Positions 3,085 to 64,000 of a DNA stretch of 64,000 bases are shown piece after piece. How positions within the stretch are numbered: the stretch's first letter is position 1; each line of letters begins with the position of its first letter. A model generated the notes under the pieces. That model was not told the DNA's origin, searched no databases, and was given only the letters and a program-made list of their open reading frames with translations. This DNA is from an uncultured Clostridia bacterium (GTDB lineage Bacteria; Bacillota; Clostridia; TANB77; CAG-508): positions 15,487 through 79,486 of the forward strand of contig CALXZX010000002.1 in assembly GCA_944393375.1 (NCBI GenBank), given 5' to 3'. A program made the position numbers and the translations under genes.

Positions 3085-3102
3085 TAAAAAAGGAGAAAAT
3101 AA

Positions 3103-3135
3103 TTAAGATGTGAAAATCATTTCACATCTTAATTT
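3103..3135 (+). terminator. Hairpin terminator after the PBP gene
   Basis: Perfect 13-bp stem ttaagatgtgaaa / tttcacatcttaa with a 4-nt loop, followed by a short T-run. Confidence 0.6.
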
Positions 3136-3150
3136 AAAAAAGGAGGAAAT

Positions 3151-4548: not shown

Positions 4549-4576
4549 GGATAGATTCCTTAAAGTTCAATTTTTT
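4540..4576 (+). terminator. Rho-independent terminator of cysS
   Basis: 12-bp stem gaactttaagga / tccttaaagttc, 5-nt loop, then TTTTTT. The stem overlaps the cysS stop codon. Confidence 0.8.
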
Positions 4577-4588
4577 ATATATTATAGC

Positions 4589-4617
4589 TTGTACTTTTGG
4601 CTAACTAGTAATATAAT
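4589..4617 (+). promoter_or_regulatory. Sigma-A-type promoter for galE
   Basis: TTGTAC (4589-4594), 17-nt spacer, TATAAT (4612-4617), about 38 nt upstream of the galE ATG. Confidence 0.55.
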
Positions 4618-12018: not shown

Positions 12019-13494
12019 ATGAAAAAACACATACAAAAAAGTAAAATGAAAAATCAAAAAGGAATTACATTATTAGTATTAGTTATTACTATAATAATTT
12101 TATTAATCCTAGCAGGAATTACCATAAGTGCGTTAACAGGAGACAATGGAATTATAGAAAATGCAGGAAAGGCAAAAGAAGAAACAGAAATAGCCAATGA
12201 AAAAGAGATAGTAGAAAAGGCAACCGTACAAGCAATGGGGAATAATAAGTATGGAAATATAGAAGAAGATGAATTGCAAAGTGAGTTAGATAAAGAAACA
12301 GGAGAAGGGAAAACAGATGCAACAGATATAGGAAATGAACTTGAAGTAGTATTTATTGATAGTAATCGATATTATGTAGTTGATAAAGATGGAAATGTAG
12401 GAGAAGCACAAGAGATTATAAAAGATAAAAATCCAGGAGATATTACAATAGGAAAAGATGGAGAAACATTAGATGGAAGTGAAGAACATCCATATGAGAT
12501 AAGGTGTATAGAAGATTTAATAGAATGGTCACAACATTATACTAAATATCAGAATAGTAATATTGTCTTATGTAAAGACTTGAATTTTAAATCTTCACTA
12601 TCTTATGCAGATAGTAAAAGTATGGAATATGGAGACATCAATCAAGATAATACAACAGACAGTCTGATTGAGGAGATGCAAAAAGGAATAGGTTTCACAC
12701 CAATAGCAAATTTTTCAGGGATATTTAATGGGAATCATTTTGGAATTCAGAATATTTATATAGTTAATCATGAAAGTGTAGGACTATTTAGTCAAATAGA
12801 TGGAGCTATAATAAGTGATCTAGATATAAGTGGATATATTGAAAGTACAGAAATTACTAGCATTGCTGGTGGAGCTGGTAGCATAGCAGGAAATATAAGT
12901 GAAGGAAGAAATAAAAAAAGTTATATAGAAAATTGTTCAAATAGTGCTACTATAAAAGGTTTTTTAAACCAAAATTATACAGGAATTGGTGGTATAGTAG
13001 GTAAATCTAACGGGGCAGCTAATATAGTAAATTGTAGTAATAGAGGTACAATAATAAGTGAAGTAGGTACAAAAGTTTATATGGGAGAAAACGCAATAGG
13101 TACTGCGGGAATTTTAGGATATACAAGAGGTAATAAGGCTGATGTCAATATATATAACAGTTATAATATAGGAAATGTTTCATCAAATAAATCATCTTGT
13201 GGAATAATGGGAGGTATATGGGCAGAAGGTTCAATTAATATAGAAAATTGTTTTAATATAGGAGAAGCAAAAATAGGGATTTGTAAAAGTGCAAATAGTA
13301 GTAACAGTATTTACTATTTGGATAGTGCAAGTAGCACAGGAGGAATAACAAATGCAGTTCTTATTACAAAAAATGAATTGTGTAGTGAAGAATTTATTAA
13401 TTTATTAAATGATTATATAGAATCAGGAGAAGATTATAAAACTAAATGGAAAAAATGGAAATTAGGAGAAGAAGGATATCCTATAATTGAATAA
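12019..13494 (+). CDS. Surface protein paralog 1: pilin-like N-terminal hydrophobic module plus GLUG-type beta-helix repeats
   Basis: N-terminus KGITLLVLVITIIILLILAGITISALTGDNGII resembles a class III (prepilin) signal but lacks Glu+5. A conserved ~160-aa module ends at PYEIRCIEDL. The C-terminal half has repeated GG(I/L)(V/I)G...N(C/S)xN.G motifs. Confidence 0.85.
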   Translation: MKKHIQKSKMKNQKGITLLVLVITIIILLILAGITISALTGDNGIIENAGKAKEETEIANEKEIVEKATVQAMGNNKYGNIEEDELQSELDKETGEGKTDATDIGNELEVVFIDSNRYYVVDKDGNVGEAQEIIKDKNPGDITIGKDGETLDGSEEHPYEIRCIEDLIEWSQHYTKYQNSNIVLCKDLNFKSSLSYADSKSMEYGDINQDNTTDSLIEEMQKGIGFTPIANFSGIFNGNHFGIQNIYIVNHESVGLFSQIDGAIISDLDISGYIESTEITSIAGGAGSIAGNISEGRNKKSYIENCSNSATIKGFLNQNYTGIGGIVGKSNGAANIVNCSNRGTIISEVGTKVYMGENAIGTAGILGYTRGNKADVNIYNSYNIGNVSSNKSSCGIMGGIWAEGSINIENCFNIGEAKIGICKSANSSNSIYYLDSASSTGGITNAVLITKNELCSEEFINLLNDYIESGEDYKTKWKKWKLGEEGYPIIE

Positions 13495-14831: not shown

Positions 14832-14994
14832 AATAACACCTCTTACAAATATTAACATAAATAGTATACCACATCTATGCGTTTTTTGCAAAGTTTAATA
14901 TAGAAATAAAAAATATATAAATTTTTATAAAAATAAAGTGGATTTTTTAGATATAAATGATATAATACAAAAGATTACGAAAGGAACTGATAAG

Positions 14995-15507
14995 ATGAAC
15001 ATAGAAGAAATACAAAAAAATAATGATAATAAAGAAATTATATTGCAAGCAGTAAAGGAAAATGGAAAAAATTTAGAATTAGCATCAATACAATTACAAG
15101 ATGATAAAGAAGTGGTTATGGAAGCACTAAAACAAGATGGAGAAGCTTTGGAGTTTGCTAGTAAAAGGTTAAAAGGGGATAAAGAAGTCTTAGAACTAGC
15201 AACTAAAACAGCACCTTGGACAATTTGTTACGCATCAGAGGAACTAGCAGGAGACAAAGAAATTATGCTAGAATGTTGTAAACATTATGGACAAGCTCTA
15301 TATTATGCATCTGAAGAATTACGAGATGATAGAGAAGTGGTAAAGGCAGCAGTAGAAAATAAAGGGATTATTATTAAATATGCTAGTAAACGATTAATTG
15401 ATGATAAAGAATTAGCACAAATTGCTGTTAAACAAAATAAACAAGCTTATCATTTTATATCAAATAAATTGAAACAAGATGAAGATATTAAAAAGTTAAT
15501 GGAATAG
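14995..15507 (+). CDS. DUF4116 repeat protein
   Basis: About five tandem ~30-aa repeats of the AVKxNGxALEyASxxLkdDKEvvl type. ATG at 14995 after AAAGGA is preferred over the GTG at 14938. Confidence 0.65.
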   Translation: MNIEEIQKNNDNKEIILQAVKENGKNLELASIQLQDDKEVVMEALKQDGEALEFASKRLKGDKEVLELATKTAPWTICYASEELAGDKEIMLECCKHYGQALYYASEELRDDREVVKAAVENKGIIIKYASKRLIDDKELAQIAVKQNKQAYHFISNKLKQDEDIKKLME

Positions 15508-39709: not shown

Positions 39710-39817
39710 AAGAAAAATAGATAAATGACAGTAGGAATACAGTTATTTATCTATTTATGTTATGAGAAGTATCATACTTAAAATTTATTAGAGCATATTG
39801 CTCGAATGGAGGTTTTT

Positions 39818-41767
39818 ATGGGACAAAAGAAAAGTAAAAGTTTGTTAATAACAGTTATTGTTTTATTAATTATTATTTTAATTTTAGTAGGCGTTATAGC
39901 ATATTTATATTTTTTCACAGATATGTTTAAAAGTAATAAACAGTTATTTTTCAAATATACTTCACAGATTATGCAAAGTGAAGATGGATTTATAGATAAT
40001 CAGTTAATGCAATATTTTCAAAAAAAGGATAGCACAAGTTATGAAAATAATGGAGAAATAACATTTGATGTATCTATTCCCAATATGGAAGATGATTTAG
40101 AATTGGCTAATCATTTTAATATTACTTTTTCAGGAAAAGAAGATCCTAATAATTCAAAATTAGAAAAAGAGATTAGTCTCAACTATTCAGATAGTGTCAA
40201 TTTTCCATTAACATATAGAAAAACAAATAACATAACAGGAATTCAAACCCAATATATTGGAAGTAGTTTTGTAGCTATTAGAAATGATGAAGAAATTTCT
40301 GGATTAACAGATATAAATAATTTATTAAAATTACAAAATATAGCGTTTTCTAATGAAGAAATACAAAATCTGAAAACAACTTATTTTGATAATATATTAA
40401 ATACATTAGAAGATAGCAAGTTTTCTACATTAACTGAGGGGAATTTAACAGGATATAGATTAACATTAACAGGTGAAGAATTCAAAAATACATTGGTTCA
40501 AATCTTAAATGTATTAAAAACAGATGCTAATACAATGCATAAAATAAACGAGATCTTGCAAGGGATAGGAATCGATACACAATTAAATGAAGATTCTATA
40601 GATACGCTAATAGAAAGTATTAATGATTGGGAATTAAATGATAATATTGAAATGACTGTATATGCCACAGGAGGAAAACTATATAGAGTTGATATAGGAA
40701 CAGCTGGAAATACATTAACAATAAATAGAGAAGGAAACGGTCAAGAAGTAACATATACTATGTCTTTGAATGTGACAGAACAAAATGCAAGTGCAGTATT
40801 TACAGCTAAATATTCTGGATTAAATTCAGATAATGTAACTGAAACATATGAACTAACATTAGAAGGAAAGTATGGAGAAACTAATGTAGTAGAAAAATCA
40901 GATAATACACAAGATACATTAGATATTTCAAGTGAGAGAGAAACAATTGAGTCATTAATGACAACTGTTCAAGCAAATAAAATAGCAGCAGGAGAAGATA
41001 GTACCCAAATCAGTGATACAGATGTAGAAGAAGAATTATCATCAGGAGAAAATGAAATCTATACAGATATGCGTTTAGAAAGAGAAACAGATACAACATT
41101 TAGTATTACATTTGTTAGTACAGGAGACAAATTTGTCATAGATAACACAGGAAAAATTGTTGAAGAACCAGAAGAAACTTCAACAAATGAAACTACAACA
41201 AATGCATCAGAAAATACGACCAGCCATAATACATATAATATGACAAATAATGTACAATTTAAAAATGGAGTACAAATAGAAGATTTAACAGAAGAAAATG
41301 CAGTTATTTTAAATGATAAAGATAATGAATATGTTAGCAATTTGATGAATGCTATACAACAAAGAATGGTAGAAGTCAATCAAGTGCAAATGGAAGAATT
41401 AGGCGTATCAGAAGATCAAAATCCAATTCAATATCTAATACCAGCATTTTTATTAACAAACGGAACAAATGCAGAAATAGATGAACAGGCAGTAAATGCT
41501 TTTAATGCAAAATTTGAACTATATGAAAGTACAAATACAAAAGGAGCAACAGTGAAAGGGTTATTAACAACTATACAAAATAATAATGAGACAGAAGGAA
41601 ATAACAAAATAGAAGAAATCAATATGGATGGCGAAGAATATGAAGTAAATGAACAAAATATTACCTTATTAAAAAGTAGCATTAATGTAGATGACGCATA
41701 CAGGGTAGAATTCGAAAAAGATATTAACACAGGACTAATTTATAGGGCAGTTATTAATAAACGTTAG
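39818..41767 (+). CDS. Hypothetical membrane-anchored protein
   Basis: ATG at 39818 after GGAGG. One N-terminal TM (LLITVIVLLIIILILVGVIAYLYFF), then ~620 aa of N/E/T-rich sequence with no recognised domain. Confidence 0.6.
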   Translation: MGQKKSKSLLITVIVLLIIILILVGVIAYLYFFTDMFKSNKQLFFKYTSQIMQSEDGFIDNQLMQYFQKKDSTSYENNGEITFDVSIPNMEDDLELANHFNITFSGKEDPNNSKLEKEISLNYSDSVNFPLTYRKTNNITGIQTQYIGSSFVAIRNDEEISGLTDINNLLKLQNIAFSNEEIQNLKTTYFDNILNTLEDSKFSTLTEGNLTGYRLTLTGEEFKNTLVQILNVLKTDANTMHKINEILQGIGIDTQLNEDSIDTLIESINDWELNDNIEMTVYATGGKLYRVDIGTAGNTLTINREGNGQEVTYTMSLNVTEQNASAVFTAKYSGLNSDNVTETYELTLEGKYGETNVVEKSDNTQDTLDISSERETIESLMTTVQANKIAAGEDSTQISDTDVEEELSSGENEIYTDMRLERETDTTFSITFVSTGDKFVIDNTGKIVEEPEETSTNETTTNASENTTSHNTYNMTNNVQFKNGVQIEDLTEENAVILNDKDNEYVSNLMNAIQQRMVEVNQVQMEELGVSEDQNPIQYLIPAFLLTNGTNAEIDEQAVNAFNAKFELYESTNTKGATVKGLLTTIQNNNETEGNNKIEEINMDGEEYEVNEQNITLLKSSINVDDAYRVEFEKDINTGLIYRAVINKR

Positions 41768-47898: not shown

Positions 47899-50010
47899 AT
47901 GAAAACTAAAGAAAATAGAAAAAATAGGGGAATTACTTTAATTGCCCTAGTTATCACCATTATAGTGTTACTAATTTTAGCAGGAATCACAATAGGAGCG
48001 ATAACAGGAGATAATGGTATTATACAAAATGCATTAAGTGCAAAAGAACAAACAGAAATTGCAAATGAAAGAGAAATTGTAGAAGAAGCAACTGTTCAAG
48101 CCATGGGAAAGAATAAAAGAGGAAACATTGTAAAAGATGAATTGCAAGAAGAATTAGATAAAATAACAGGAGAAGGAAAAACCATTGTAACAGAAGATAA
48201 AGAAGAACTAGGATATTTTGTAAAGTTTGTAGACAGTGGAAGAATCTATAAAGTTAGTATAGATGGAGATGTACAATATTTAGGAAAAGAAAATGAATTA
48301 ATCACACAAGCAGATATTATAGCAAATCCAGAAAGTAATACAACAGCAGAGCTAATACAACAAGTAGATTTAACAGTAAAAACACCAATTGAAATAGAAG
48401 GAGCAGAGTATTCATTAGTATATGCATGGAACCAAGATAAAGAAAATGCACCAGAAGATACAAAATTCTTAGAAACAAACTTAATAGGAGAAGGAAGAAT
48501 CAGAACGACAACGGTATATAGTAGTGATACAGTAGGAGGAGACTATTACTTGTGGGTAAGAATTGTGGTAGGAGATATAGAAAGAGAAGCATGTTTTGGA
48601 CCATATGCAATAAAAGATTATACAACTTTAGTATCTGTTGATTGGAATGGTGGTTTAGCAGAAGGAGGATTTTTAGGAAATAGTGAAGTACCAAGAGGAA
48701 AAATACAAAATATTGATATAATTACATCATTAGAGGGACATAGTGTAGATGATGAAAAAACCTGGGATGTATCAGATGGAAATAAAGGAATGTATTTAGC
48801 ATGGTATGAAGTAAATGAGAATGGATATTATGATGTAACGATTGCAGGAAATGGAGGAATTGTTGCAAATAGTTATTCAACATATTTATTTAAAAATATA
48901 GGTTCTGGTGTGGAAAATCAAGAAGTAACAATAACAGGGTTAGAATATTTAGACACAGGGTTAGTAACGAATATGTATTCAATGTTTGAAAATTGTAAAG
49001 CAGAAGAAATAGATGTGAGCCAATTTAATACAGAAAAAGTTACATCCATGTCATCAATGTTTTCAAGTTGTAGTAATATAGAAAGTTTGAATGTAAGTAA
49101 TTTTAAAACAGAGAATGTAACAAGTATGTATCAGATGTTTGATGGATGTAGTAGTTTAACAGAATTAGATTTAACGAATTTTAATACAAGTAATGTAACG
49201 AATATGGAAGGTATGTTTTTGAACTGTAAAGCAACAAGTATATACTTAAGTGGTTTTGATACAAAAAATGTAGCAAATATGCTAAATATGTTTAATGGTT
49301 GTTCTGTAACAAGCCTGGATGTAAGCCATTTTAACACAAGTAATGTAACAAATATGCAGGGAATGTTTGCTAATTGTAAAGTACAGAGTTTAGATTTAAC
49401 GAGTTTTAATACAAGTAAAGTAACAACTATGTGGACTATGTTTCAAGGGTGTCAAGCAACTAATATTGATGTGAGTAGTTTTGACACGAGTAGTGTATTA
49501 TATATGAGAGAAATGTTTGCATCGTGTAGAGCAACAGATTTAGATTTATCTAATTTTGATACAAGCAATGTAACAAATATGTATAGAATGTTTATGAGTT
49601 GTAGAGCAACAAATATAGATGTAAGCAATTTTGACATAAGTAACGTAACATATACTATGGATGGAATGTTCCGAGATTGTTCAAATTTAGTAAAATTAGA
49701 TGCAAGTAGTTTTACAATGCCCAAAACAACATCTGTAGAGTGGATGTTTGGAGGTTGTCAAAAAATAGAACAAATAGACCTTAAAAATTTTGAGGTAAAG
49801 GAAGGAACCAATATTAATCAGATGTTTTACAACTGCCGAAGTTTAGAAAAATTAGATATTAGAAAATTTGATATAACAAAGACAACTGGATATAGTAATT
49901 ACTGGATATATCCTGTACCAACAACATGTAGTATTATTGTAAATCAAAGCATGAAAGATTGGTTTACAGAAAACCTTCCAAATTATACAAATGTAACAAT
50001 AGGAAATTAG
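47899..50010 (+). CDS. Surface protein paralog 2: pilin-like N-terminal module plus BspA/DUF285-type leucine-rich repeats
   Basis: N-terminus RGITLIALVITIIVLLILAGITIGAITGDNGII is homologous to the other five paralogs. The C-terminal half has about 12 tandem ~24-aa repeats (F(N/D)TSNVTNMxxMFxxCxxxxLDLSN). Confidence 0.88.
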   Translation: MKTKENRKNRGITLIALVITIIVLLILAGITIGAITGDNGIIQNALSAKEQTEIANEREIVEEATVQAMGKNKRGNIVKDELQEELDKITGEGKTIVTEDKEELGYFVKFVDSGRIYKVSIDGDVQYLGKENELITQADIIANPESNTTAELIQQVDLTVKTPIEIEGAEYSLVYAWNQDKENAPEDTKFLETNLIGEGRIRTTTVYSSDTVGGDYYLWVRIVVGDIEREACFGPYAIKDYTTLVSVDWNGGLAEGGFLGNSEVPRGKIQNIDIITSLEGHSVDDEKTWDVSDGNKGMYLAWYEVNENGYYDVTIAGNGGIVANSYSTYLFKNIGSGVENQEVTITGLEYLDTGLVTNMYSMFENCKAEEIDVSQFNTEKVTSMSSMFSSCSNIESLNVSNFKTENVTSMYQMFDGCSSLTELDLTNFNTSNVTNMEGMFLNCKATSIYLSGFDTKNVANMLNMFNGCSVTSLDVSHFNTSNVTNMQGMFANCKVQSLDLTSFNTSKVTTMWTMFQGCQATNIDVSSFDTSSVLYMREMFASCRATDLDLSNFDTSNVTNMYRMFMSCRATNIDVSNFDISNVTYTMDGMFRDCSNLVKLDASSFTMPKTTSVEWMFGGCQKIEQIDLKNFEVKEGTNINQMFYNCRSLEKLDIRKFDITKTTGYSNYWIYPVPTTCSIIVNQSMKDWFTENLPNYTNVTIGN

Positions 50011-55460: not shown

Positions 55461-55654
55461 CCTAGAGTTAAGTACTCTAGAACTTTTTTAATACCTTGAT
55501 TATACCAATAAATATAATAGATATCAACAAAAAATAGAAAATAAAATGACAAAATTTATTAATTGGAAAATAGAAAATAAAAAAGAACAAAGACAGTAAA
55601 AAGGCTAAATAATGCATAAAATCCAACTTTCTATATTTCTTAGAGTACTTAACT
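55461..55654. promoter_or_regulatory. Putative invertible promoter (inverton 3)
   Basis: IR-L core 55466-55479 (agttaagtactcta) is the exact reverse complement of IR-R 55641-55654 (tagagtacttaact), 14 bp. The flanking GAA/TTC extends it with a 1-nt bulge. The segment carries TTGATA (55527-55522), 17 nt, TATAAT (55504-55499) on the minus strand. Confidence 0.65.
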
Positions 55655-55683
55655 AAAAGAAAGTATAGAAGGGAGAAGATAAA

Positions 55684-57219
55684 ATGCAAAAGATAAGGAA
55701 AGAACAGGGAATTACATTATTAGCATTAGTAATTACTATTATTATATTATTAATCTTAGCAGGAATCACAATAAGTGCTATTACAGGGGACAATGGAATC
55801 ATAGGAAATGCAGGACAAGCAAAAGAGGAAACAGAGATTGCCAATGAAAAAGAAATTATAGAAAAAGCGACTGTACAAGCAATGGGAAATAATAAATATG
55901 GGAACATAGAAGAAAGTGAATTACAAGAACAATTAGATAAAGAAACAGGAGAAGAAAAAACAGAAGTATTAAATGTCGAAGATGAATTTGAAGTTGTATT
56001 TCATGAAAGTAACAGATATTATACAGTAGATAAAGATGGAAATGTACAAGGTGCCTATGAAATCATAGAAGATAAATATCCGGGAGATATTACTGTTGGA
56101 AAAGATGGAGAAACATTATATGGAAGTGAAGAAAAACCATATGAAATCTGGTGTATAGAAGATTTAATGGAATGGTCTAAAAACTATAGTCAATATATGA
56201 ACGCATATATAAAGTTATGTACTAATTTAAACTTTAAATCAGAATTATCATATGCAAATAGTGAAACAAAAGACTATGGAGATGTGAATCAAGATGGAAA
56301 TACAGATAGTTTAATAAAAGAATTACAAAGTAGAGAAGGATTTAAAGCAATACAACAATTTTCAGGTAATTTTGATGGTGATGAAAATATAATCAGTAAT
56401 TTATATATTTCTAAACAGGACAATGCAGGTCTCATCTTATCTTTAAATAATGCTAATTTCAAGAATATTACAATAAAAGGAGAAATATATAGCCAAAGTA
56501 ATAATGCCGGAATTATTTCTCAAGGAGGAAATAGTCAAATTGAAAATATTATAAGTGATGTTAAGATATATGGTGGCGTAGCAGCAGGAATAATAGGAAG
56601 ATGTACAGCTCAATTAAACATAAAGGATTGCGTGAACTTGGGAAATATAGAATCAACGTCAGCAGTAGGTGGAGTTTGTGGAGACCAGTTTACAGGAGAA
56701 ATGTTAAATTGTATAAATGAAGGAACAATAAAATCTAGCGCAAGTGGAAATTATGGTGTAGGAGGATTATGTGGAAATACTGGCAGTAATAATACAGAAA
56801 GTACACAAATAAAAAATTGTATAAATAGTGGAACAATTATATATGATGGAAATAAAAGTGTATGGTATTTTGGTGGAGCAGGTGGAATAACAGGATTAAA
56901 TCGACAAACATTGATTATACAAAACTGTGTGAATACAGGAAAAATACAATCTACCTCTTATGTAGGTGCTATATGTGGAATGGATCTTATATATTGGCAA
57001 AGCCAAGAAACATATGAATTAACCAATTCATTCATGTTAGATAATGTGGAGAGAGTAACAGGAAGTAATAATGCAGAAACAGAAATTACAGTATTTAAAA
57101 TCGAAGATGTTCTAGATGTAGCTACAAGTTTAAATCAATATATAAATAATAATAAATTAACAGAACAAGGTTGGAAATTATGGAAAATAGAAAATGATAA
57201 TAAATTAACATTAGAATAA
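55684..57219 (+). CDS. Surface protein paralog 3: pilin-like N-terminal module plus GLUG-type beta-helix repeats
   Basis: GGGAGAAG RBS. MQKIRKEQGITLLALVITIIILLILAGITISAITGDNGIIGNAG start. Constant module runs to PYEIWCIEDL (55684-56166). C-terminal GG(V/L)CG/AGGITG repeats. Confidence 0.88.
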   Translation: MQKIRKEQGITLLALVITIIILLILAGITISAITGDNGIIGNAGQAKEETEIANEKEIIEKATVQAMGNNKYGNIEESELQEQLDKETGEEKTEVLNVEDEFEVVFHESNRYYTVDKDGNVQGAYEIIEDKYPGDITVGKDGETLYGSEEKPYEIWCIEDLMEWSKNYSQYMNAYIKLCTNLNFKSELSYANSETKDYGDVNQDGNTDSLIKELQSREGFKAIQQFSGNFDGDENIISNLYISKQDNAGLILSLNNANFKNITIKGEIYSQSNNAGIISQGGNSQIENIISDVKIYGGVAAGIIGRCTAQLNIKDCVNLGNIESTSAVGGVCGDQFTGEMLNCINEGTIKSSASGNYGVGGLCGNTGSNNTESTQIKNCINSGTIIYDGNKSVWYFGGAGGITGLNRQTLIIQNCVNTGKIQSTSYVGAICGMDLIYWQSQETYELTNSFMLDNVERVTGSNNAETEITVFKIEDVLDVATSLNQYINNNKLTEQGWKLWKIENDNKLTLE

Positions 57220-57242: not shown

Positions 57243-57445
57243 TTCATTGAGTTAGATACTCAATGAATTTTTTACTAAAAAGATTATACCATAATTGTAA
57301 AGAAAATCAAGCATTTAAAAAGATATTTAATATAATAATTAGTAATTAAAAAAGTAATAAAATAAAATGAAAAGGTAGTTAAAAATGCACATATTTTCAT
57401 AAAAAAAGTCCTTTTTAATTTTCATTAAGTATCTAACTTAATGAA
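57243..57445. promoter_or_regulatory. Putative invertible promoter (inverton 4)
   Basis: The reverse complement of IR-L 57243-57267 (ttcattgagttagatactcaatgaa) matches IR-R 57421-57445 (ttcattaagtatctaacttaatgaa) at 23/25 positions. The loop sequences ttagata and tatctaa are mutual reverse complements. The segment carries TTGATT (57310-57305), 16 nt, TATAAT (57288-57283) on the minus strand. Confidence 0.7.
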
Positions 57446-57464
57446 AAAGAAAGGGGCAAGAAAA

Positions 57465-59066
57465 ATGCAAAAGATAAGGAAAGAACAGGGAATTACACTA
57501 TTAGCATTAGTTATAACCATCATTGTGTTATTAATCTTAGCAGGAATCACAATAAGTGCGATAACAGGAGATAATGGAATCATAGGAAATGCAGGTCAAG
57601 CAAAAGAAGAAACAGAGATTGCCAATGAAAAAGAAATTGTAGAGAAAGCAACTGTACAAGCAATGGGAAATAATAAATATGGGAACATAGAAGAAAGTGA
57701 ATTACAAGAACAGCTAAATAAGGAAACAGAGGAAGGAAAAACAGAAGTATCAGATGTCGAAGATGAATTTGAAGTTGTATTTCATGAAAGTAATAGATAT
57801 TATACAGTAGATAAAGATGGAAATGTACAAGGTGCCTATGAAATCATAGAAGACAAATATCCAGGAGATATCACAGTTGGAAAAGATGGAAATACATTAG
57901 ATGGAAGTGAAGAAAAACCGTATGAGATTTGGTGTATAGAAGATTTATGTGCATTTTCAAACGAAGTAAATAAAGGAACAACATTTTGGAGCAAATATGT
58001 AAAATTAATGAGAAATTTAAATTTTAATTCAAATCTTTCTTATGTAAACGGAAACATATCTGTAGATGGGAATATTCAAAGTTGTCAATCAATCGAGGAA
58101 TTAAAGAAGTTATTAACAGAAAATGAAGGATTTTATCCTATTGGAAATTCATATTCATCAACAGCTGCAATTTTTAGGGGAATTTTTGATGGAAATAATA
58201 AGACTATAAAAAAAATATATATTAATAGACCCAATAATGTGGTAGGATTATTCGGAACAACATCCAATGATACCGATAATAATATTATTATTAAAAATTT
58301 ATCTATTTCTGGAAATATGACCGGAAGTACTGTTGGTAGTATATTTGCTGATGTTAGAACTTATGATAGGGATAATAAAGATTCTTTTATAAAAATTGAA
58401 AATTGCACAAGTGACATAAATATAGAAGGAGATGTGACAGGGGGATTTATTGGAATTAATAATGCTTCTTCTACAGGAAAATTGATTATTGCCAATTGTA
58501 TAAATAATGGAACAATAAATGGCAAAAGTTATGTTGGTGGCATTTTAGGATATAATTATAATAATACTAAAATAATTAACTGTTATAATTCAGGAAACAT
58601 AGAAGGAGAGTCGGATGTAGGAGGAATTGTTGGACATGATGAAAGGCAATCTAATATAATAAATACATATAATTTAGGAAATGTGACATCTAATTCGAAT
58701 GCTGGAGGAATAATAGGCTGGTCAGGATGGGCAGAAAAAAGTATAGAAAATTGTTATAATATGGGAAGAATATCAGGAAGTACTGTAGGTGGAATTATTG
58801 GAGGATTAAATATAAGTAATGAATTGCTAACTACTCAAAATTGTTATTATTTAAATAAAAATATTTCAAAAGGAACTGGAAGTTGGAATGGTGGAGGAGA
58901 ATCTCAAGAAGATATTAATGGTATTTCTGATACTGAAATGAAATCAACTGAAATATTAGAAAAACTCAATAATTATGTAACAGAAAATATAACAATAGAA
59001 GGTGTTGTGTTGAAAAAATGGATAGTAGGAGAGGATGGATATCCAATTTTTGAAAAAAATATATAA
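57465..59066 (+). CDS. Surface protein paralog 4: pilin-like N-terminal module plus GLUG-type beta-helix repeats
   Basis: The ATG at 57465 (after AAAGGGG) aligns with the MQKIRKEQGITLLAL start of paralogs 3 and 6. The track start at 57441 lies inside IR-R. The C-terminal ~110 aa are shared with paralog 5. Confidence 0.88.
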   Translation: MQKIRKEQGITLLALVITIIVLLILAGITISAITGDNGIIGNAGQAKEETEIANEKEIVEKATVQAMGNNKYGNIEESELQEQLNKETEEGKTEVSDVEDEFEVVFHESNRYYTVDKDGNVQGAYEIIEDKYPGDITVGKDGNTLDGSEEKPYEIWCIEDLCAFSNEVNKGTTFWSKYVKLMRNLNFNSNLSYVNGNISVDGNIQSCQSIEELKKLLTENEGFYPIGNSYSSTAAIFRGIFDGNNKTIKKIYINRPNNVVGLFGTTSNDTDNNIIIKNLSISGNMTGSTVGSIFADVRTYDRDNKDSFIKIENCTSDINIEGDVTGGFIGINNASSTGKLIIANCINNGTINGKSYVGGILGYNYNNTKIINCYNSGNIEGESDVGGIVGHDERQSNIINTYNLGNVTSNSNAGGIIGWSGWAEKSIENCYNMGRISGSTVGGIIGGLNISNELLTTQNCYYLNKNISKGTGSWNGGGESQEDINGISDTEMKSTEILEKLNNYVTENITIEGVVLKKWIVGEDGYPIFEKNI

Positions 59067-59074
59067 AAAAATAT

Positions 59075-59276
59075 CGTTAAGTTAATTACTTAACGATTGA
59101 AAACTAAATATATAATACCAATAAAAAATAGTAAAGTCAATAGATAAGGAGAGATATACAAGAAAAGAAAAATAGAATAGAAAACAACAAAAAATGAAAA
59201 GCAGAAATGATTTGTTTTATAGTAAAATCAAATCATTCCTGCTTTTTTATATATACCTTAAGTAATTAACTAAAAG
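59075..59276. promoter_or_regulatory. Putative invertible promoter (inverton 5)
   Basis: The reverse complement of IR-L 59075-59095 (cgttaagttaattacttaacg) matches IR-R 59256-59276 (ccttaagtaattaactaaaag) at 18/21, with a perfect 14-bp core. The segment carries TTGACT (59140-59135), 17 nt, TATTAT (59117-59112) on the minus strand. An internal plus-strand terminator lies at 59201-59248. Confidence 0.7.
59201..59248 (+). terminator. Intrinsic terminator inside inverton 5, just upstream of IR-R
   Basis: gcagaaatgattt / aaatcattcctgc, a 13-bp stem with one mismatch, followed by TTTTTT. Confidence 0.65.
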
Positions 59277-59331: not shown

Positions 59332-60987
59332 ATGAGATTCAAAAGAGAAAACAAACGAGAAGCAGGAATTACATTATTAGCATTAGTTATAACCATCATT
59401 GTATTATTAATATTAGCAGGAATTATAATAAGTGCTATTACAGGGGACAATGGAATCATAGGAAATGCAGGTCAAGCAAAAGAAGAAACAGAGATTGCAA
59501 ATGAAAAAGAAATTGTAGAGAAAGCAACTGTACAAGCAATGGGAAATAATAAATATGGGAACATAGAAGAAAGTGAATTACAAGAACAATTAGATAAAGA
59601 AACGGATACTGGAAAAACAGAAGTATCAGATGTGGAAGATGAATTTGAAGTTGTATTTCATGAAAGTAACAGATATTACACAGTAGATAAAGATGGAAAT
59701 GTAGATGGTGCCTATGAAATTATAGAAGATAAACATCCAGGAGATATTACGCTTGGAAAAGATGGAGAAACATTAGATGGAAGTGAAGAAAAACCATATG
59801 AGATTTGGTGTATAGAAGACTTAGTAGCTTTTTCGAATATGGTAAATGGAGAAGGGATTAGGTTAGAAAATGGCGAGCCCAAACAAATAAGAAGTACAAA
59901 TAGTTTTTCTTTAAAATATGTTGTTTTAAAAACAAATCTTAATTTTAAATCAAAATTATCATATCAAAATAGTGAAAGAACGGACTTTGGAGATATTAAT
60001 GGAAATGAAAATGATGGAAATACATTGATGAATGAAATGACAACAGAAAATGGATTTAAACCAATAGGAATGGTTGAAAATACAGGCTTCGGTGGTGTTT
60101 TTGATGGTCAAAATTATTGGATAAAAGAAATGTATATCCATAGAGAAGATAGAGGAGTAGGTCTATTTACTAAAATAGACAATGTAAATAGTGTAGTTAT
60201 AAAAAATTTGAGAATATCAGGAGAAATGGCAGGAAACTCTGGCGGAGGTGTAGTAGGGACGGTATCTTTGGTTTTTAGAGGGAACAATATAATGATACAA
60301 AATTGTATAAATTATGTAAATATTAAAACTACGGTTTCGGCAGGAGGAATTGTTGGCAGTCGTGGATCTGGTGGATCAGATAAGACTTTAATGATTGCTG
60401 ATTGTATAAACTATGGAGAAATTGAAGGACAAAATTTCTCGGGTGGAATTATTGGACTAGCATATGAAACTACAAAAATTATTAATTGCTGTAATATAGG
60501 AAAAATAGTAAGTAAAGATAAAAATGAAGCATATGGAGGAGCGGGTGGAATTATTGGAACTAGTATGTTTAAAGTTAATATTATTAATGCATATAATTTT
60601 GGAAATGTAGAAGCTGAAAAAAATGCAGGAGGTATTTTAGGATATTCTTATTGGGCAGAAAAGAGTATAGAAAATTGTTATAATATAGGGAAAATATCAG
60701 GAGATACTGTAGGTGGAATTATAGGAACATTGACACTAAGTAATGAATTGTTAGCAACACAAAACTGTTACTATTTAAACACAAATATTTCAAAAGGATT
60801 TGGTAGTTGGAATTCTAGTGCAGAAGCATTAGAAGATGTACAAGGTCTTACAGATACAGAAATGAAATCAACGGAAGTATTAGAGAAACTCAATAATTAT
60901 GTAACAGAGAATATAACAATGGAAGGTATTGTATTGAAAAAATGGATAGTAGGAGAGGATGGATATCCTGGATTTGATAATAACTAA
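59332..60987 (+). CDS. Surface protein paralog 5: pilin-like N-terminal module plus GLUG-type beta-helix repeats
   Basis: AGAGG RBS. MRFKRENKREAGITLLALVITIIVLLILAGIIISAITGDNGII start. Constant module to PYEIWCIEDL (ends 59823). GG(I/V)(I/V)G...NC(Y/I)N.G repeats. Confidence 0.88.
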   Translation: MRFKRENKREAGITLLALVITIIVLLILAGIIISAITGDNGIIGNAGQAKEETEIANEKEIVEKATVQAMGNNKYGNIEESELQEQLDKETDTGKTEVSDVEDEFEVVFHESNRYYTVDKDGNVDGAYEIIEDKHPGDITLGKDGETLDGSEEKPYEIWCIEDLVAFSNMVNGEGIRLENGEPKQIRSTNSFSLKYVVLKTNLNFKSKLSYQNSERTDFGDINGNENDGNTLMNEMTTENGFKPIGMVENTGFGGVFDGQNYWIKEMYIHREDRGVGLFTKIDNVNSVVIKNLRISGEMAGNSGGGVVGTVSLVFRGNNIMIQNCINYVNIKTTVSAGGIVGSRGSGGSDKTLMIADCINYGEIEGQNFSGGIIGLAYETTKIINCCNIGKIVSKDKNEAYGGAGGIIGTSMFKVNIINAYNFGNVEAEKNAGGILGYSYWAEKSIENCYNIGKISGDTVGGIIGTLTLSNELLATQNCYYLNTNISKGFGSWNSSAEALEDVQGLTDTEMKSTEVLEKLNNYVTENITMEGIVLKKWIVGEDGYPGFDNN

Positions 60988-61484: not shown

Positions 61485-62369
61485 ATGAGTAATTTAAACA
61501 AATTAAAAGAAGTAGATATGCTACCATTATCAAATGATTATGTATTCAAAAGAATATTTGGAAAAGGTGGAAATGAAAGAATATTAAAAAGCTTACTAGA
61601 AGCAATTTTAAAAATTAGTATACAAAAAATAGAAGTAAAAAATCCGGAAATACCAAAAGAAGCAATTGATGAAAAATTAAGCATCTTAGATATCAAAGCA
61701 GAAATAAATGAAAATACCATTATAGATGTTGAATTACAAGTAGGAAATACAACGGCCTTAGAAAGAAGATTAGTAGTATATAATGCAAAACTAATAGCAG
61801 GAGAAATAAAAGTATCAGAAAAATATCAAAAGGCAAAAGATACAATTGTGATATGTATTATAAATGATAATGTTGTAAGACGAAATGCATATTTAAGTTT
61901 AGCCATGTTAAAATATGAAAAAACAGAAGAAATCAGATATGTCAATATGGGATATGGAAAAGAAGAAGAATATTTAACAGACATGGTAAAATACTATATC
62001 ATAGAATTACCAAAGTTTAAGAAAAAGAAACCAAAGGTAGCAGATTTACTAGAAAAATGGTTATATGTGATTGGGGGAGATAGAAAAATGATGGAAGAAT
62101 GCAAAAAAGAAAATGAAGAAATCAAAGAAGCAGTAGAACAATTAACACAAATGAGTGCAGATGAATACGAAAGAGAACTATATGAAATTAGGGAAAGAAG
62201 TAGATTAACTTATAACACAGAAATGTATGAAGCAAGAAGGAAAGGATTAGAAGAAGGGAAGACTGAAGAAAGAAAAGAAATTGCTAAGAAAATGAAAGAA
62301 AAAGGTACAGATATTACATATATAATCGAGATAACAGGTTTAACTGAAGAAGAAATTAAAGCATTGTAA
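61485..62369 (+). CDS. Rpn / PD-(D/E)XK (PDDEXK_2, TIGR01784 'putative transposase or invertase') family nuclease
   Basis: N-terminal L..SNDYVFKRIFG motif. D...E.Q nuclease core (LSILDIKAEINENTIIDVELQ). Charged helical C-terminus ending in an HTH-like KGTDITYIIEITGLTEEEIKAL, as is typical of this family. Confidence 0.75.
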   Translation: MSNLNKLKEVDMLPLSNDYVFKRIFGKGGNERILKSLLEAILKISIQKIEVKNPEIPKEAIDEKLSILDIKAEINENTIIDVELQVGNTTALERRLVVYNAKLIAGEIKVSEKYQKAKDTIVICIINDNVVRRNAYLSLAMLKYEKTEEIRYVNMGYGKEEEYLTDMVKYYIIELPKFKKKKPKVADLLEKWLYVIGGDRKMMEECKKENEEIKEAVEQLTQMSADEYERELYEIRERSRLTYNTEMYEARRKGLEEGKTEERKEIAKKMKEKGTDITYIIEITGLTEEEIKAL

Positions 62370-62418
62370 TTTATTTATAAGTATCATTAAAGAAATAATT
62401 TTTCAGAACATAAAAAAT

Positions 62419-62618
62419 CGTTAAGTCAGATACTTAACGATATAAAACTAAAAATATAATATCAATAAAAAATAGTAAAGTCAATAGATAGAAAGAATGA
62501 AAATAAAGAATTAAAATTCATAAAGAAAATAAAAAACAAAAAGTAGAAAAAACTTGTAATAGTGTTACAATAAGTAATTTCTGCTTTTTTCTTTTTACCT
62601 TAAGTATCTGACTTAATG
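62419..62618. promoter_or_regulatory. Putative invertible promoter (inverton 6)
   Basis: The reverse complement of IR-L 62419-62439 (cgttaagtcagatacttaacg) matches IR-R 62598-62618 (ccttaagtatctgacttaatg) at 19/21, with a perfect 17-bp core. The segment carries TTGACT (62484-62479), 17 nt, TATTAT (62461-62456) on the minus strand. An internal terminator-like hairpin plus T-run lies at 62542-62590. Confidence 0.7.
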
Positions 62619-62640
62619 AAAAAGGAAAGGAGTAGGAAAA

Positions 62641-64000
62641 ATGCAAAAGATAAGGAAAGAACAAGGAATTACACTATTAGCATTAGTTATAACCATCATT
62701 GTATTATTAATATTAGCAGGAATTACAATAAGTGCGATAACAGGAGATAATGGAATCATAGGAAATGCAGGTAAAGCAAAAGAAGAAACAGAGATTGCAA
62801 ATGAAAAAGAAATTGTAGAGAAAGCAACTGTACAAGTAATGGGAAATAATAAATATGGGAACATAGAAGAAAGTGAATTACAAGAACAATTAGATAAAGA
62901 AACGGATACTGGAAAAACAGAAGTATCAGATGTCGGAGATGAATTTGAAGTTGTATTTCATGAAAGTAATCGATACTATACAGTAGATAAAGATGGAAAT
63001 GTAGAAGGTGCTTATGAAATTGTAGAAGATGAATATCCAGGAGATATTACAGTTGGAAAAGATGGAGAGACATTAGATGGAAGCGAAGGAAAACCATATG
63101 AGATTTGGTGTATAGAAGATTTAGTAGAATGGTCACAAAATTATAGAAACTATCAAAATTCTTATATAGAATTGAAAAGAACATTAAATTTTAAATCAAG
63201 ATTGTCTTATATAAACGGAAAAATGTTAAATTGCAATTCAATAGAAGAATTAAGAAATTTATTAACAAATACTTCTGGAAGTGGATTTACACCAATTACT
63301 AATTTTTATGGTACTTTTGATGGGAAGAACTTTGAAATACAAAATATTTATGAAAATGTATCAGGAAAAGCAGGTTTTTTTGCAGATGCTGCTGGGACAA
63401 TAAAAAATTTAAAAATATCGGGAAATATTATTTCAAATGATGGATATGCGGGTGGAATTGTAAGTAATTTAGGAGAAACATTAAACATTAGTAACTGCAT
63501 TAATTACTGTAACGTTACTGCAAATGCAGAAATACATACCAATCCTGGTAATGTTGATGTTCGTGGAACTGCAGGAGGAATTGTAGGAAAATGTGTAGGA
63601 AATGTTATCATTAAGGATTGTGCAAATGAAGGAAATATATATGGAACAAATGAAACGGGAGGAATAGTAGGATTTCAATATGTTTCTAATATCACAATTT
63701 TAAATTGTTATAATGATGGAATGATAAATGGGGAAAGTGATACAGGAGGAATCATTGGTAGAACATTGGCATCAACTGTGCAAATATATAATTGTTATAA
63801 CATAGGAAATATTTCTGGAAGTGTTACTGGAGGATTAATGGGAAATAGAGGTTCTAATGATAAAATAGAGATAAAAAATTGTTATAATTATTCAGAAATT
63901 AAAGGAAGTAAATATCAAGGAGAAATTATTGGATTTAATTGGGCATATGATACAGAAACATCTCCTACAATAGAAAATGTATTTTATACAAATCAAACAA
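62641..64000 (+). CDS. Surface protein paralog 6 (partial, runs off the window end): pilin-like N-terminal module plus GLUG-type beta-helix repeats
   Basis: ATG at 62641 after AAAGGAG. MQKIRKEQGITLLALVITIIVLLILAGITISAITGDNGII start. The frame stays open to base 64000. It is absent from the ORF track only because no stop falls within the window. Confidence 0.85.
   Translation, partial: MQKIRKEQGITLLALVITIIVLLILAGITISAITGDNGIIGNAGKAKEETEIANEKEIVEKATVQVMGNNKYGNIEESELQEQLDKETDTGKTEVSDVGDEFEVVFHESNRYYTVDKDGNVEGAYEIVEDEYPGDITVGKDGETLDGSEGKPYEIWCIEDLVEWSQNYRNYQNSYIELKRTLNFKSRLSYINGKMLNCNSIEELRNLLTNTSGSGFTPITNFYGTFDGKNFEIQNIYENVSGKAGFFADAAGTIKNLKISGNIISNDGYAGGIVSNLGETLNISNCINYCNVTANAEIHTNPGNVDVRGTAGGIVGKCVGNVIIKDCANEGNIYGTNETGGIVGFQYVSNITILNCYNDGMINGESDTGGIIGRTLASTVQIYNCYNIGNISGSVTGGLMGNRGSNDKIEIKNCYNYSEIKGSKYQGEIIGFNWAYDTETSPTIENVFYTNQT

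Follow-up and report, generated by a model that had tools for sequence, protein, structure and literature searches.

Six paralogous genes (p1 to p6) begin with a common 5' segment and continue into different C-terminal parts, which raises two questions: what the common segment encodes, and how its sequence has been kept alike. In the window, i.e. the whole 64-kb stretch of DNA that was analysed, all six are genuine open reading frames on the plus strand, and p1 lies 43 kb from the tandem array p3-p6 (Table 1). The segment is probably the 5' "carrier" cassette of a very large multigene family of cell-surface proteins in a lineage of uncultured, spore-forming gut Clostridia. p6, which the window cuts short, has a full length of 510 amino acids in locus L001, and p5 has a 105-nt in-frame deletion (60234-60339) in one strain variant. 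The start of p4 is likely at 57465, and P0121 begins at the second methionine. The antisense open reading frames at 55653-55907 and 62613-62864 are judged to be by-products of conserved AT-rich sequence.

Table 1. Features of the paralog family in the window (positions are counted from its first nucleotide).
Feature	Position	Strand	Remarks
p1	12019-13494	+	Stands alone; cassette ends at 12519; takes no part in the conversion
p2	47899-50010	+	Signal and alpha/beta module (to ~48276) followed by unrelated leucine-rich repeats (DUF285/PARCEL domain)
p3	55684-57219	+	Cassette 55684-56166, variable part 56167-57219
Constant 5' cassette of p3	55684-56166	+	Residues 1-161; 90-95% nucleotide identity to p4-p6; breakpoint 56166
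Basic leader MQKIRKEQ ending in Gly9	55684-55710	+	Putative class III cleavage site G|ITL
Near-invariant hydrophobic helix ITLLALVITIIILLILAGITISAI	55711-55782	+	Lowest-entropy long segment; in-register weak pilin matches
TGDNG break, two helices, four-stranded antiparallel sheet	55783-56061	+	Residues 34-126; common to p2-type proteins
Linker PGDITVGKDG...GSEEKPYEIWCIEDL	56062-56166	+	Leads into the start of the beta-helix domain; conversion tracts end here
Variable GLUG-type beta-helix part of p3	56167-57219	+	Fold inferred from the p4 model
p4	57441-59066	+	Start probably at 57465; cassette ends at 57947; beta-helix of the GLUG type
C-terminal cap module of p4	58652-59044	+	Common to p5 (60576-60968); 82% over 395 nt
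p5	59332-60987	+	Cassette to 59823
Rpn/YhgA-like PD-(D/E)XK nuclease ("transposase") gene	61485-62369	+	Inside the array; Pfam PDDEXK_2, 151.5 bits
Small hairpin TTAAGTATCTGACTTAA	62593-62622	+	Immediately precedes the p6 ribosome-binding site
p6	62641-64000 (cut by window end)	+	Cassette to 63123

The first-pass annotation had described a sharply bounded cassette shared by all paralogs, about 90% identical over the first ~480 nt of p3-p6 and more diverged in p1 and p2, with an abrupt loss of similarity after the CIEDL codons. The measured identities agree: from the GITL to the CIEDL codons, nucleotide identity is 90-95% within p3-p6 and 82-83% between p1 and the others (91% between the p1 cassette and that of its ortholog), while p2 reaches 72-78%, limited to the first ~270-380 nt. 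The 3' edge is equally clear, as identity among p3-p6 drops to ~50% past the CIEDL codons, and maximum chi-square breakpoints fall at 56166/57947 (p3-p4), 56166/59823 (p3-p5), 57947/63123 (p4-p6), 59827/63127 (p5-p6) and 12519/57947 (p1-p4), each of them unmatched in 200 permutations; the similarity extends beyond CIEDL by 23 nt in the pair p3 and p6, 36 nt in p1 and p6 and ~130 nt in p1 and p3. The sharpness does not hold at the 5' edge, where ~245 nt of upstream sequence is common to p3 and p4 and ~55 nt to p4 and p6, and the leader codons of p5 are its own. The complete cassette is found in p1 and p3-p6 and not in every paralog, since the similarity of p2 to the others ends after the first ~115 residues (breakpoints 48162-48276) and covers the signal and the alpha/beta module only.

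From its N-terminus, the product of the cassette consists of a short basic leader with a final glycine, a near-invariant hydrophobic helix of ~25 residues, a small alpha/beta module and a linker whose last residues, PYEIWCIEDL (entropy 0.69 bits), are the N-cap motif of the downstream domain. Diverse C-terminal modules are attached behind it. AlphaFold2 predicts a helix at residues 12-34 and gives pLDDT values of 85-94 over residues 34-126 (helices 39-69 and 77-88, strands 93-126), so that the secondary-structure order is helix, helix, short helix and four consecutive strands; a further helix (158-169) runs into the beta-helix in the model. The hydrophobic helix has an entropy of 0.93 bits, compared with 1.8-2.2 bits in the globular part. 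Among the relatives the shared boundaries are nested, lying at mature residue ~150 in 80 members, ~113 in 10 and ~45 in 2-3. Pfam and NCBIfam contain no model for this N-terminal module, the family has no name, and a Foldseek search of the cassette model against the PDB returned nothing significant (best E 0.4).

Behind the cassette, p1 and p3-p6 are predicted to carry a GLUG right-handed beta-helix and p2 carries DUF285/PARCEL repeats, while relatives are assigned other domains, the module types being diverse and including FGE-like ones. In p4 the Glug motif scores above cutoff (PF07581, 25.2 bits versus 20.5; p1, 14.9 bits, is below it), and the protein has a right-handed beta-helix fold in its AlphaFold2 model (pLDDT 90; Foldseek match 3n6z, E 6.7e-9, TM 0.62), which also matches the N-domains of IgA1 proteases. 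For p2, the scores are 220.8 bits with Pfam DUF285 (PF03382, cutoff 25) and 255 bits with NCBIfam PARCEL (TIGR02167, cutoff 30). The C-terminal module reported earlier as common to p4 and p5 is recovered (Table 1), and the identity of this cap tail is 0.75-0.89 across the subfamily irrespective of orthology.

The constant N-terminus may be a degenerate class III (type IV prepilin-like) signal which lacks Glu5. The claim that alanine or valine takes the place of Glu+5 is borne out in the 99 members compared, where position +5 is Ala in 71, Val in 27 and Ser in one, and never Glu, while position +1 is Ile in 95 and Val in 4, and never Phe; a set of 136 family representatives gives the same picture at both positions. 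In ~126 aligned representatives, Gly-1 is present in 94% (Ala in 5%), Ile+1 in 96%, Thr+2 in 100% and Lys or Arg at -2 in 73%, and the leaders are mostly 4-19 residues long; those of the six paralogs have 9-15 residues and end in QG, KG, RG or AG. The N-terminus thus has the short basic leader ending in Gly-1 of a class III signal and, in ITLLALVITIIILLILAGITISAI, the ~20 hydrophobic residues right after the cleavage site (alpha1N), and it does not have Glu+5 or the usual Phe/Met+1. A PDB sequence profile favours the prepilin-like reading, as four of its six weak matches are pilin N-termini, in which KG|FTLIEL is aligned to KG|ITLIAL (best E 0.013).

The prepilin-like reading suggested by the first-pass annotation is a plausible lead: the invariant Gly-Ile-Thr and the weak in-register pilin matches stand in its favour, and the order of helices and strands in the AlphaFold2 model would fit a pilin, in which a long alpha1 packs on an antiparallel beta-sheet, while the N_methyl profile proposed as a check (PF07963) scores 13.2-18.2 bits in all six paralogs, below the cutoff of 21.2, and Foldseek gives no significant pilin (PilA5 in the PDB is at rank 33 with E 1.9). 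In NCBIfam, the prepilin N-terminal model (TIGR02532-type) is not among the matches at E <= 0.1, and neither p3-p6 nor the A24 peptidase described below has a match.

The annotation had also named the lack of a prepilin peptidase in the genome as evidence that would refute such a signal. The lineage does not lack one, since a stand-alone A24 peptidase is conserved in the sister MAG CALXKD (L034:4202-4966, Pfam 70.2 bits). It recurs with 80-94% identity on many contigs, where its context is a housekeeping one, matches the Peptidase_A24 model alone in Pfam, without the N-terminal Cys-rich domain, and is linked to family genes in one case only; the 64-kb window contains no A24 peptidase. Motif scans for pilus assembly machinery (T4P/Com/Tad ATPases of the PilB/ComGA/TadA kind, PilC platform) and canonical Glu5 pilins found none in the window and 1.12 Mb of lineage loci, an estimated 10-15% of any one genome. 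The canonical motif picked up SpoIIAB-like proteins and others unrelated to pilins, and the matches resembling ATPases were FtsK/SpoIIIE-like. Scans for sortase and LPxTG motifs gave nothing on family members.

It is quite conceivable that the N-terminus has nothing to do with pilins and is a plain Sec signal whose strong conservation is a by-product of gene conversion, a reading that leaves the conversion itself unchanged. Signal peptidase I would then cut the protein close to ...ISA|ITG or ...LTG|DNG, or the signal would stay uncleaved as a signal-anchor. The n-region, the h-region of ~19-25 residues, the glycine at -6 and the I-S-A follow the layout of Gram-positive signal peptides, the conserved (I/L)-T-G|D is a possible signal peptidase I site, and the absence of Glu5, the N_methyl scores below cutoff, the lack of a significant pilin match in Foldseek and the absence of pilus machinery from the 1.12 Mb scanned all suit this reading. 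However, the ISA site is not conserved, because its -1 position is M, L, V, I or R in 48 of the 131 representatives, and the h-region here runs uninterrupted for 24-25 residues, which is long for a cleaved signal. It is moreover better conserved than the globular domain, even across 50%-identity clusters and in proteins with unrelated downstream parts, which is unusual for Sec signals, and conservation reaches 94-100% for the Gly-Ile-Thr where the n- and h-regions meet.

If the N-terminus is instead a class III signal, the A24 peptidase of the lineage would cleave it after the glycine, and the mature protein would retain the hydrophobic helix, which would anchor it in a membrane or filament in the manner of modular or tip pilins. 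A bolder and rather unlikely extension is that [K/R]-G|ITL(I/L)(A/V)LVITIIVLLILAG defines a new Glu5-less class of A24 substrates in gut Clostridia, a pilin-derived carrier for dozens of interchangeable adhesin modules per genome (GLUG beta-helix, PARCEL repeats, FGE-like and others). These might then be displayed on the tip of a putative filament or as peptidase-processed membrane anchors, and conversion, possibly promoted by the adjoining Rpn-like nuclease genes, would keep the repertoire compatible with the machinery.

As to how the segment has been kept alike, the cassettes of p3-p6 have, with high confidence, been homogenised by repeated intragenomic gene conversion. Between these paralogs, dS is 0.18-0.40 in the cassette (dN/dS 0.09-0.18) and ~0.9-1.3 downstream, i.e. 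synonymous divergence is 3-5 times lower in the cassette. Between orthologs from different MAGs the relation is reversed, cassette dS exceeding that of the rest of the gene in seven of eight pairs and by up to 8-fold (for example 0.354 vs 0.051, 0.177 vs 0.022 and 0.471 vs 0.147). Quartet sites favouring orthology, genome and other groupings number 6:16:2, 4:25:4 and 10:10:3 in the array cassettes, and 145:21:8, 187:6:5 and 337:1:0 in the rest of the gene, so that the cassettes group by genome and the remainder by orthology, as expected under concerted evolution of the segment. The nearest cassette comes from the same genome in 26 of 59 members (4.4 expected), whereas the nearest C-terminal part does so in 3 of 59. 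The conversion tracts stop at the CIEDL codons, the point where homology ends, and the beta-helix parts beyond them are separate orthologous lineages under weaker constraint than the cassette; that of p3 has ~30% amino acid identity to its paralogs in the window and 90% to its ortholog in MAG CALXLP.

Cassette exchange had been proposed for the family as a whole. It applies to the tandem array p3-p6, and "all paralogs" is an overstatement, because p1 follows orthology (27:2:2). The case for conversion rests on the between-genome comparisons, because tests of mosaicism inside the cassette are weak: the longest concordant tracts are marginal (p ~0.014, uncorrected, in two of six pairs), and a PHI-like neighbour test on the cassette alone is non-significant (p = 0.54). 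The events are not very recent, because dS between paralog cassettes is not near zero.

These comparisons also bear on three other origins of the pattern. It is improbable that one cassette was recently fused, several times independently, onto old and diverged C-terminal genes with no ongoing conversion; the nested module boundaries and the many C-terminal types do show past shuffling in the family, but the fusions predate the species splits, because the combinations of cassette and C-terminus are already shared with orthologs from other MAGs; even so, the cassettes cluster with those of their own genome, and between orthologs they have diverged more than the remainder of the gene. An explanation by selection alone, in which the N-terminal module is essential and under strong purifying selection and no recombination takes place, is highly improbable. 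It accords with the low dN/dS of the cassette (0.07-0.18), but selection at the protein level can neither give a 3-5-fold lower synonymous divergence between paralogs, nor push that between orthologs above the rest of the gene, nor make cassettes group by genome, and Rfam finds no nucleotide-level element in the ~460 nt. An assembly artefact, in which collapsed or chimerised repeats create false identity and breakpoints, is scarcely credible, for although the lineage is known from metagenomes only and a few relatives in the databases (P0091, P0101) have a chimeric or truncated look, the locus is present in four independent metagenome assemblies at 99.2-99.9% identity (the whole p3-p6 array in two of them), the 63 sites at which cassettes differ follow consistent patterns, and the same architecture recurs in 17 MAGs.

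Gene conversion in the array may have a driver nearby. Copies of the Rpn-like nuclease adjoin family genes in 11 other loci, and this recurrence makes the nuclease a testable candidate for promoting recombination. Hairpins similar to that upstream of p6 are found at 57419-57448 (p4) and ~59259 (p5), and the hairpin pattern has five matches in the window against 0.7 expected, a number reached in 1 of 100 shuffles. An RNA element in the conserved DNA was considered and dropped, as Rfam has no match anywhere in the window. A phage origin was likewise set aside, as the cassette had no tblastn match in 50,697 phage records, no relative turned up among the IMG/VR viral contigs scanned, and PHROGs gave noise only (E 0.002-0.004).

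The family extends far beyond this locus. A profile search retrieved 30,253 cluster representatives at E <= 0.001, 761 of them at E <= 1e-30, and genomes of uncultured Clostridia from chicken and human guts carry many copies each, with 21 family open reading frames in MAG CALXKD within the flanks sampled. The N-terminal peptides do not occur as literal strings in the 8 million papers searched, and a broader look through the literature for similar families in Firmicutes gave nothing relevant. The locus is a clear example, from bacteria, of concerted evolution limited to one segment, in which a constant module is homogenised while ligand-binding modules diverge as stable orthologs. One constant export or anchoring module would serve many variable binding modules, and a commensal could thus keep a broad adhesin repertoire compatible with a single machinery. 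Should the N-terminus truly be processed by a prepilin peptidase, the definition of the bacterial class III signal, for which current tools key on Phe1 and Glu5, would be widened, and thousands of proteins would be added to the modular-pilin concept.

Among known systems, the cassette resembles the modular type IV pilins, typified by PilB and PilC of Streptococcus sanguinis, in which IPR012902 is joined to an extra domain (PMC8179133, PMC9934059). In both, a short leader with a final glycine and a hydrophobic helix belong to a small N-terminal module, which a short linker joins to a bulky ligand-binding module, and GLUG is already catalogued as such a second module (IPR012902-IPR011493; PMC9934059, PMC8179133). 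The present family differs in lacking Glu5 and Phe1, in N_methyl scores below cutoff, in having many copies per genome instead of one or two, and in lying outside any pil operon, with no assembly machinery found in the 1.12 Mb scanned. Pilins without Glu5 are documented (PMC9934059, PMC8179133), and the tip pilins, such as the GspK/PilK-type "K" subunit and PilA of S. sanguinis, are bulky, Glu5-less and equipped with a degenerate class III signal that standard tools miss (PMC9934059). Such tip pilins are, however, single-copy and encoded in minor-pilin operons, whereas this family is a dispersed and tandem multigene one, and the cassette gave no structural match to them in Foldseek.

In archaea, class III signals also occur on non-pilin proteins, such as the sugar-binding proteins of Sulfolobus processed by PibD, and share with the present signal the [K/R]-G followed by a hydrophobic residue, the absence of Glu5 and the large extracellular protein behind. 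The A24 peptidase of the lineage, with its Peptidase_A24 model alone, is likewise similar to the peptidase-only enzymes of the PibD/FlaK/TadV type. Here, however, the host is bacterial, the processing is putative and the sequence relationship shown is confined to the signal. The variable part of p4 is akin to GLUG proteins (PF07581) such as BACOVA_03286 (PDB 3n6z) and the N-terminal domains of streptococcal IgA1 proteases, except that a protease domain is absent here and the N-terminal carrier has no counterpart in those structures. In Neisseria opa and pilE/pilS and in Mycoplasma vlp, vsp and vsa, a conserved 5' region is kept by gene conversion. Silent cassettes, invertible elements and obvious phase-variation tracts like theirs were not seen here on a non-systematic inspection, and every family copy is complete with a start codon, a ribosome-binding site and a terminator of its own; the constant 5' end with its signal, the variable 3' part, the tandem arrays and the concerted evolution are common to these families and the one described here.

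The cassettes of the tandem genes p3–p6 share 90–95% DNA identity from the glycine of GITL to the CIEDL codons, that of the isolated p1 shares 82–83% with them, and the similarity of p2 is limited to approximately the first 270–380 nt. Maximum chi-square breakpoints are located at 56166/57947, 56166/59823, 57947/63123, 59827/63127 and 12519/57947, where identity falls from ~0.9 on the left to ~0.5 on the right, and the observed statistic was reached in none of 200 permutations; similarity extends past the breakpoint in p3–p6 (23 nt), p1–p6 (36 nt) and p1–p3 (~130 nt). p4 and p5 also possess a common tail (82% over 395 nt). The mosaic described in the first-pass annotation is confirmed in all its descriptive points. 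At the 5′ end the boundary is ragged, with ~245 nt of upstream DNA common to p3 and p4 and ~55 nt to p4 and p6, and p5 carries leader codons of its own.

The locus was recovered in independent assemblies at 99.2–99.9% identity, and the array is thus no assembly artefact. The remaining window carries housekeeping genes of a spore-forming Clostridia bacterium (spoIIIA genes, acetyl-CoA carboxylase genes and fabI), and related sequences all come from MAGs of chicken and human gut labelled uncultured Clostridia or Eubacteriales. In a strain from another sample (L002), p5 has an in-frame deletion shortening it from 551 to 514 aa, probably the loss of one β-helix rung, with 99.7–99.9% identity to the window elsewhere; a region upstream of p3 is unalignable between the two (both flanks >99.6% identical), which may be an indel or replacement in the p3 promoter region. 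The antisense ORFs over the p3 and p6 cassettes are most likely a by-product of conserved AT-rich sequence.

Positions of the paralogs and neighbouring features in the window
Feature	Position	Strand	Remark
p1	12019-13494	+	491 aa
DUF4116 repeat protein	14938-15507		233 bits; uncharacterised
DUF6583 protein	39806-41767		653 aa; membrane-anchored, uncharacterised
p2	47899-50010	+	703 aa
Unalignable with L002	55482-55637		~155 nt
Antisense ORF, p3 cassette	55653-55907	-	83-84 aa
p3	55684-57219	+	511 aa
Hairpin upstream of p4	57419-57448
p4	57441-59066	+	541 aa; second Met at 57465 favoured as start by gene callers and p3/p6 alignment
Inverse hairpin 3′ of p4	59073-59097		terminator-like
Hairpin upstream of p5	~59259-59273
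p5	59332-60987	+	551 aa
p5 deletion in L002	60234-60339		105 nt
Rpn/YhgA-like gene	61485-62369		between p5 and p6
Inverse hairpin 3′ of rpn gene	62417-62441		terminator-like
Hairpin upstream of p6	62593-62622
Antisense ORF, p6 cassette	62613-62864	-	83-84 aa
p6	62641 to window end	+	510 aa in longer contig L001

That the cassette and the remaining gene differ in history is shown along three independent lines. Firstly, dS between paralogs of the window is 0.18–0.40 in the cassette and ~0.9–1.3 (saturated) downstream, and purifying selection on the protein (cassette dN/dS 0.09–0.18) cannot alone account for such low values. Secondly, in a set of 59 complete family members (17 MAGs plus the window), 26 cassettes have their nearest neighbour in their own genome (4.4 expected by chance), compared with only 3 C-terminal parts. 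By C-terminal part, the orthologs are found in the MAGs CALXLP (L005 for p3, 90% aa; L029 for p6, 98%) and CALXKD (L017 for p5, 82%; L014 for p4, 70%; L010 for p1, 86%), whereas same-genome paralogs share ~30% identity there. Thirdly, the order is reversed between orthologs, where cassette dS exceeds that of the remaining gene in seven of eight pairs (e.g. 0.354/0.051, 0.416/0.148, 0.177/0.022 and 0.471/0.147) and dN/dS is 0.17–0.59 in the variable parts versus 0.07–0.13 in the cassette. In agreement, quartet site counts (orthology:genome:other; W, window; LP, CALXLP; KD, CALXKD) are 337:1:0 in the rest of the gene and 10:10:3 in the cassette for Wp3,LP5/Wp6,LP29, 145:21:8 and 6:16:2 for Wp4,KD14/Wp5,KD17b, and 187:6:5 and 4:25:4 for Wp5,KD17b/Wp6,KD17c.

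The array cassettes thus evolve in concert via gene conversion, whose tracts stop at the CIEDL codons, where sequence homology ends. Exchange or conversion had been suggested among the family members, but the p1 cassette too follows orthology (Wp1,KD10/Wp5,KD17b: 300:4:3 in the rest, 27:2:2 in the cassette), which confines conversion to the tandem array. Tests within the cassette are weak, with 63 polymorphic sites, two incompatible site patterns occurring nine and six times (ten and six with leader codons included), long concordant tracts in two of six cassette pairs (p ~0.014, uncorrected) and a PHI-like test giving p = 0.54, and the conclusion was therefore rested on the between-genome evidence.

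In AlphaFold models (cassette pLDDT 85; full-length p4 pLDDT 90, pTM 0.86), a hydrophobic helix (residues 8/12–34) is predicted to break at TGDNG, followed by helices (39–69 and 77–88), four consecutive β-strands (93–126), an extended linker and a helix (158–169) leading into a long right-handed β-helix. The latter matches a Bacteroides GLUG-domain protein (PDB 3n6z; Foldseek E 6.7e-9) and the N-terminal domains of streptococcal IgA1 proteases, and p4 passes the Pfam GLUG cutoff; PYEIWCIEDL thus caps the variable domain at its N-terminal side and does not stand as a boundary by itself. In the family at large, the common part ends at three nested points of the mature protein, at residue ~150 (CIEDL; 80 members), ~113 (sheet end; 10 members, p2 type) and ~45 (signal plus TGxNGI; 2–3 members). 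The modules behind it include GLUG β-helices, DUF285/PARCEL repeats, several parts without a Pfam match and, both sub-threshold, an FGE-sulfatase-like and a Big_2 domain, and the N-terminal module thus behaves as a general carrier. A cassette profile retrieved 30,253 cluster representatives at E ≤ 0.001 (15,012 at E ≤ 1e-10 and 761 at E ≤ 1e-30), with no informative name among the hits inspected. Many relatives (P0021, P0022, P0042, P0009 and P0030) are 130–185-aa ORFs within long contigs which stop soon past the cassette and resemble frameshifted family genes, P0042 matching the first ~125 residues of a 587-aa gene in locus L034; such ORFs may represent pseudogenes, errors of assembly or an on/off switch.

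The N-terminus is a candidate prepilin-like signal, a reading whose probability falls just short of even. Among 136 representatives of different 50%-identity clusters, conservation reaches 94% for Gly-1, 73% for Lys/Arg at -2, 96% for Ile+1 and 100% for Thr+2, with leaders mostly of 4–19 residues. No long segment is more conserved than the hydrophobic helix (entropy 0.93 bits versus 1.8–2.2 bits in the globular part), as would be expected of a part that stays functional after maturation rather than of a Sec signal that is discarded. Proteins whose downstream parts are unrelated also bear this type of N-terminus. The only PDB sequence matches are six weak ones (E 0.013–1.8), of which type IV pilin N-termini in the pilin register (KG↓FTLIEL versus KG↓ITLIAL) make up four, and Pfam N_methyl scores 13–18 bits in all six paralogs; the predicted order of secondary-structure elements would be compatible with a pilin. 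Glu5-less pilins overlooked by standard tools exist, and adhesive modules are found grafted onto modular pilins, one such architecture being pilin-GLUG (PMC9934059, PMC8179133). Also in favour, a sister MAG encodes an A24 family peptidase (Pfam 70 bits) that recurs on many contigs at 80–94% identity, with the neighbourhood tsaD/phosphoesterase/HAD/peptidase/pepP/efp; Pfam detected no N-terminal Cys-rich domain in it. On the other side, the N_methyl scores lie below the cutoff, no NCBIfam prepilin N-terminal model is among the hits, Glu5 and Phe1 are absent from every family member, and Foldseek returned no pilin. A scan of 1.12 Mb of lineage DNA, covering only a fraction of each genome, turned up no pilus ATPase or canonical pilin. 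As the paralogs fall short of a defining profile and lack Glu5, they are not established members of the pilin family.

Alternatively, the N-terminus may be an ordinary Sec signal or anchor, to which we give roughly two chances in five. The conserved (I/L)-T-G↓D site could be cut by signal peptidase I; the ISA↓ site is poorly conserved, its -1 residue being M/L/V/I/R in 48 of 131 representatives. A hydrophobic stretch of 24–25 residues would more likely be an anchor than a cleaved signal.

In locus L084, ~5 kb ahead of the A24 peptidase, three small proteins adjoin a 517-aa GITL-type protein (648–1238, 1537–2091, 2104–2772 and 3064–4617), all without Pfam or NCBIfam matches, and the N-termini of two of the small proteins are reminiscent of SipW-dependent TasA/camelysin-type signals.

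The gene between p5 and p6 encodes an Rpn/YhgA-like PD-(D/E)XK nuclease ("transposase"). Copies 77–93% identical lie ~300–750 nt from family genes in eight other loci of six MAGs, and three more distant copies (30–34%) likewise adjoin family genes (in all, L012, L014, L017, L020, L025, L041, L042, L055, L064, L079 and L081). In E. coli, Rpn proteins stimulate recombination independent of RecA (PMC5350276), and toxic antiphage nucleases are known among them (PMC10400941); the gene between p5 and p6 is a candidate for driving the exchange or duplication of cassettes. Upstream of the p4, p5 and p6 start codons, at ~20–40 nt, lies a small hairpin, TTAAGTA(TC/AT)T(A/G)ACTTAA, which in inverse copies also follows p4 and the rpn gene; the window has five matches versus 0.7 expected (five reached in 1 of 100 shuffles). 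The hairpin might serve in regulation, in stabilising the mRNA or as a REP-like element.

The family thus consists of a constant N-terminal carrier, homogenised through gene conversion inside the tandem array, fused to variable surface modules which pass down as orthologs under weaker constraint. The carrier may have to stay matched to a shared partner (a peptidase, an export/assembly system or an anchor), and this matching, together with the homology needed for recombination, would keep the block sharp, while the β-helix and repeat modules might bind different ligands. The concerted evolution is solid but familiar in type. Among the closest known systems, Neisseria and Mycoplasma surface-gene families are alike in the concerted evolution of a constant 5′ end. 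Archaeal class III signals on non-pilin proteins compare through a signal lacking Glu5 and a peptidase-only enzyme, and modular and Glu5-less tip pilins through architecture and signal.
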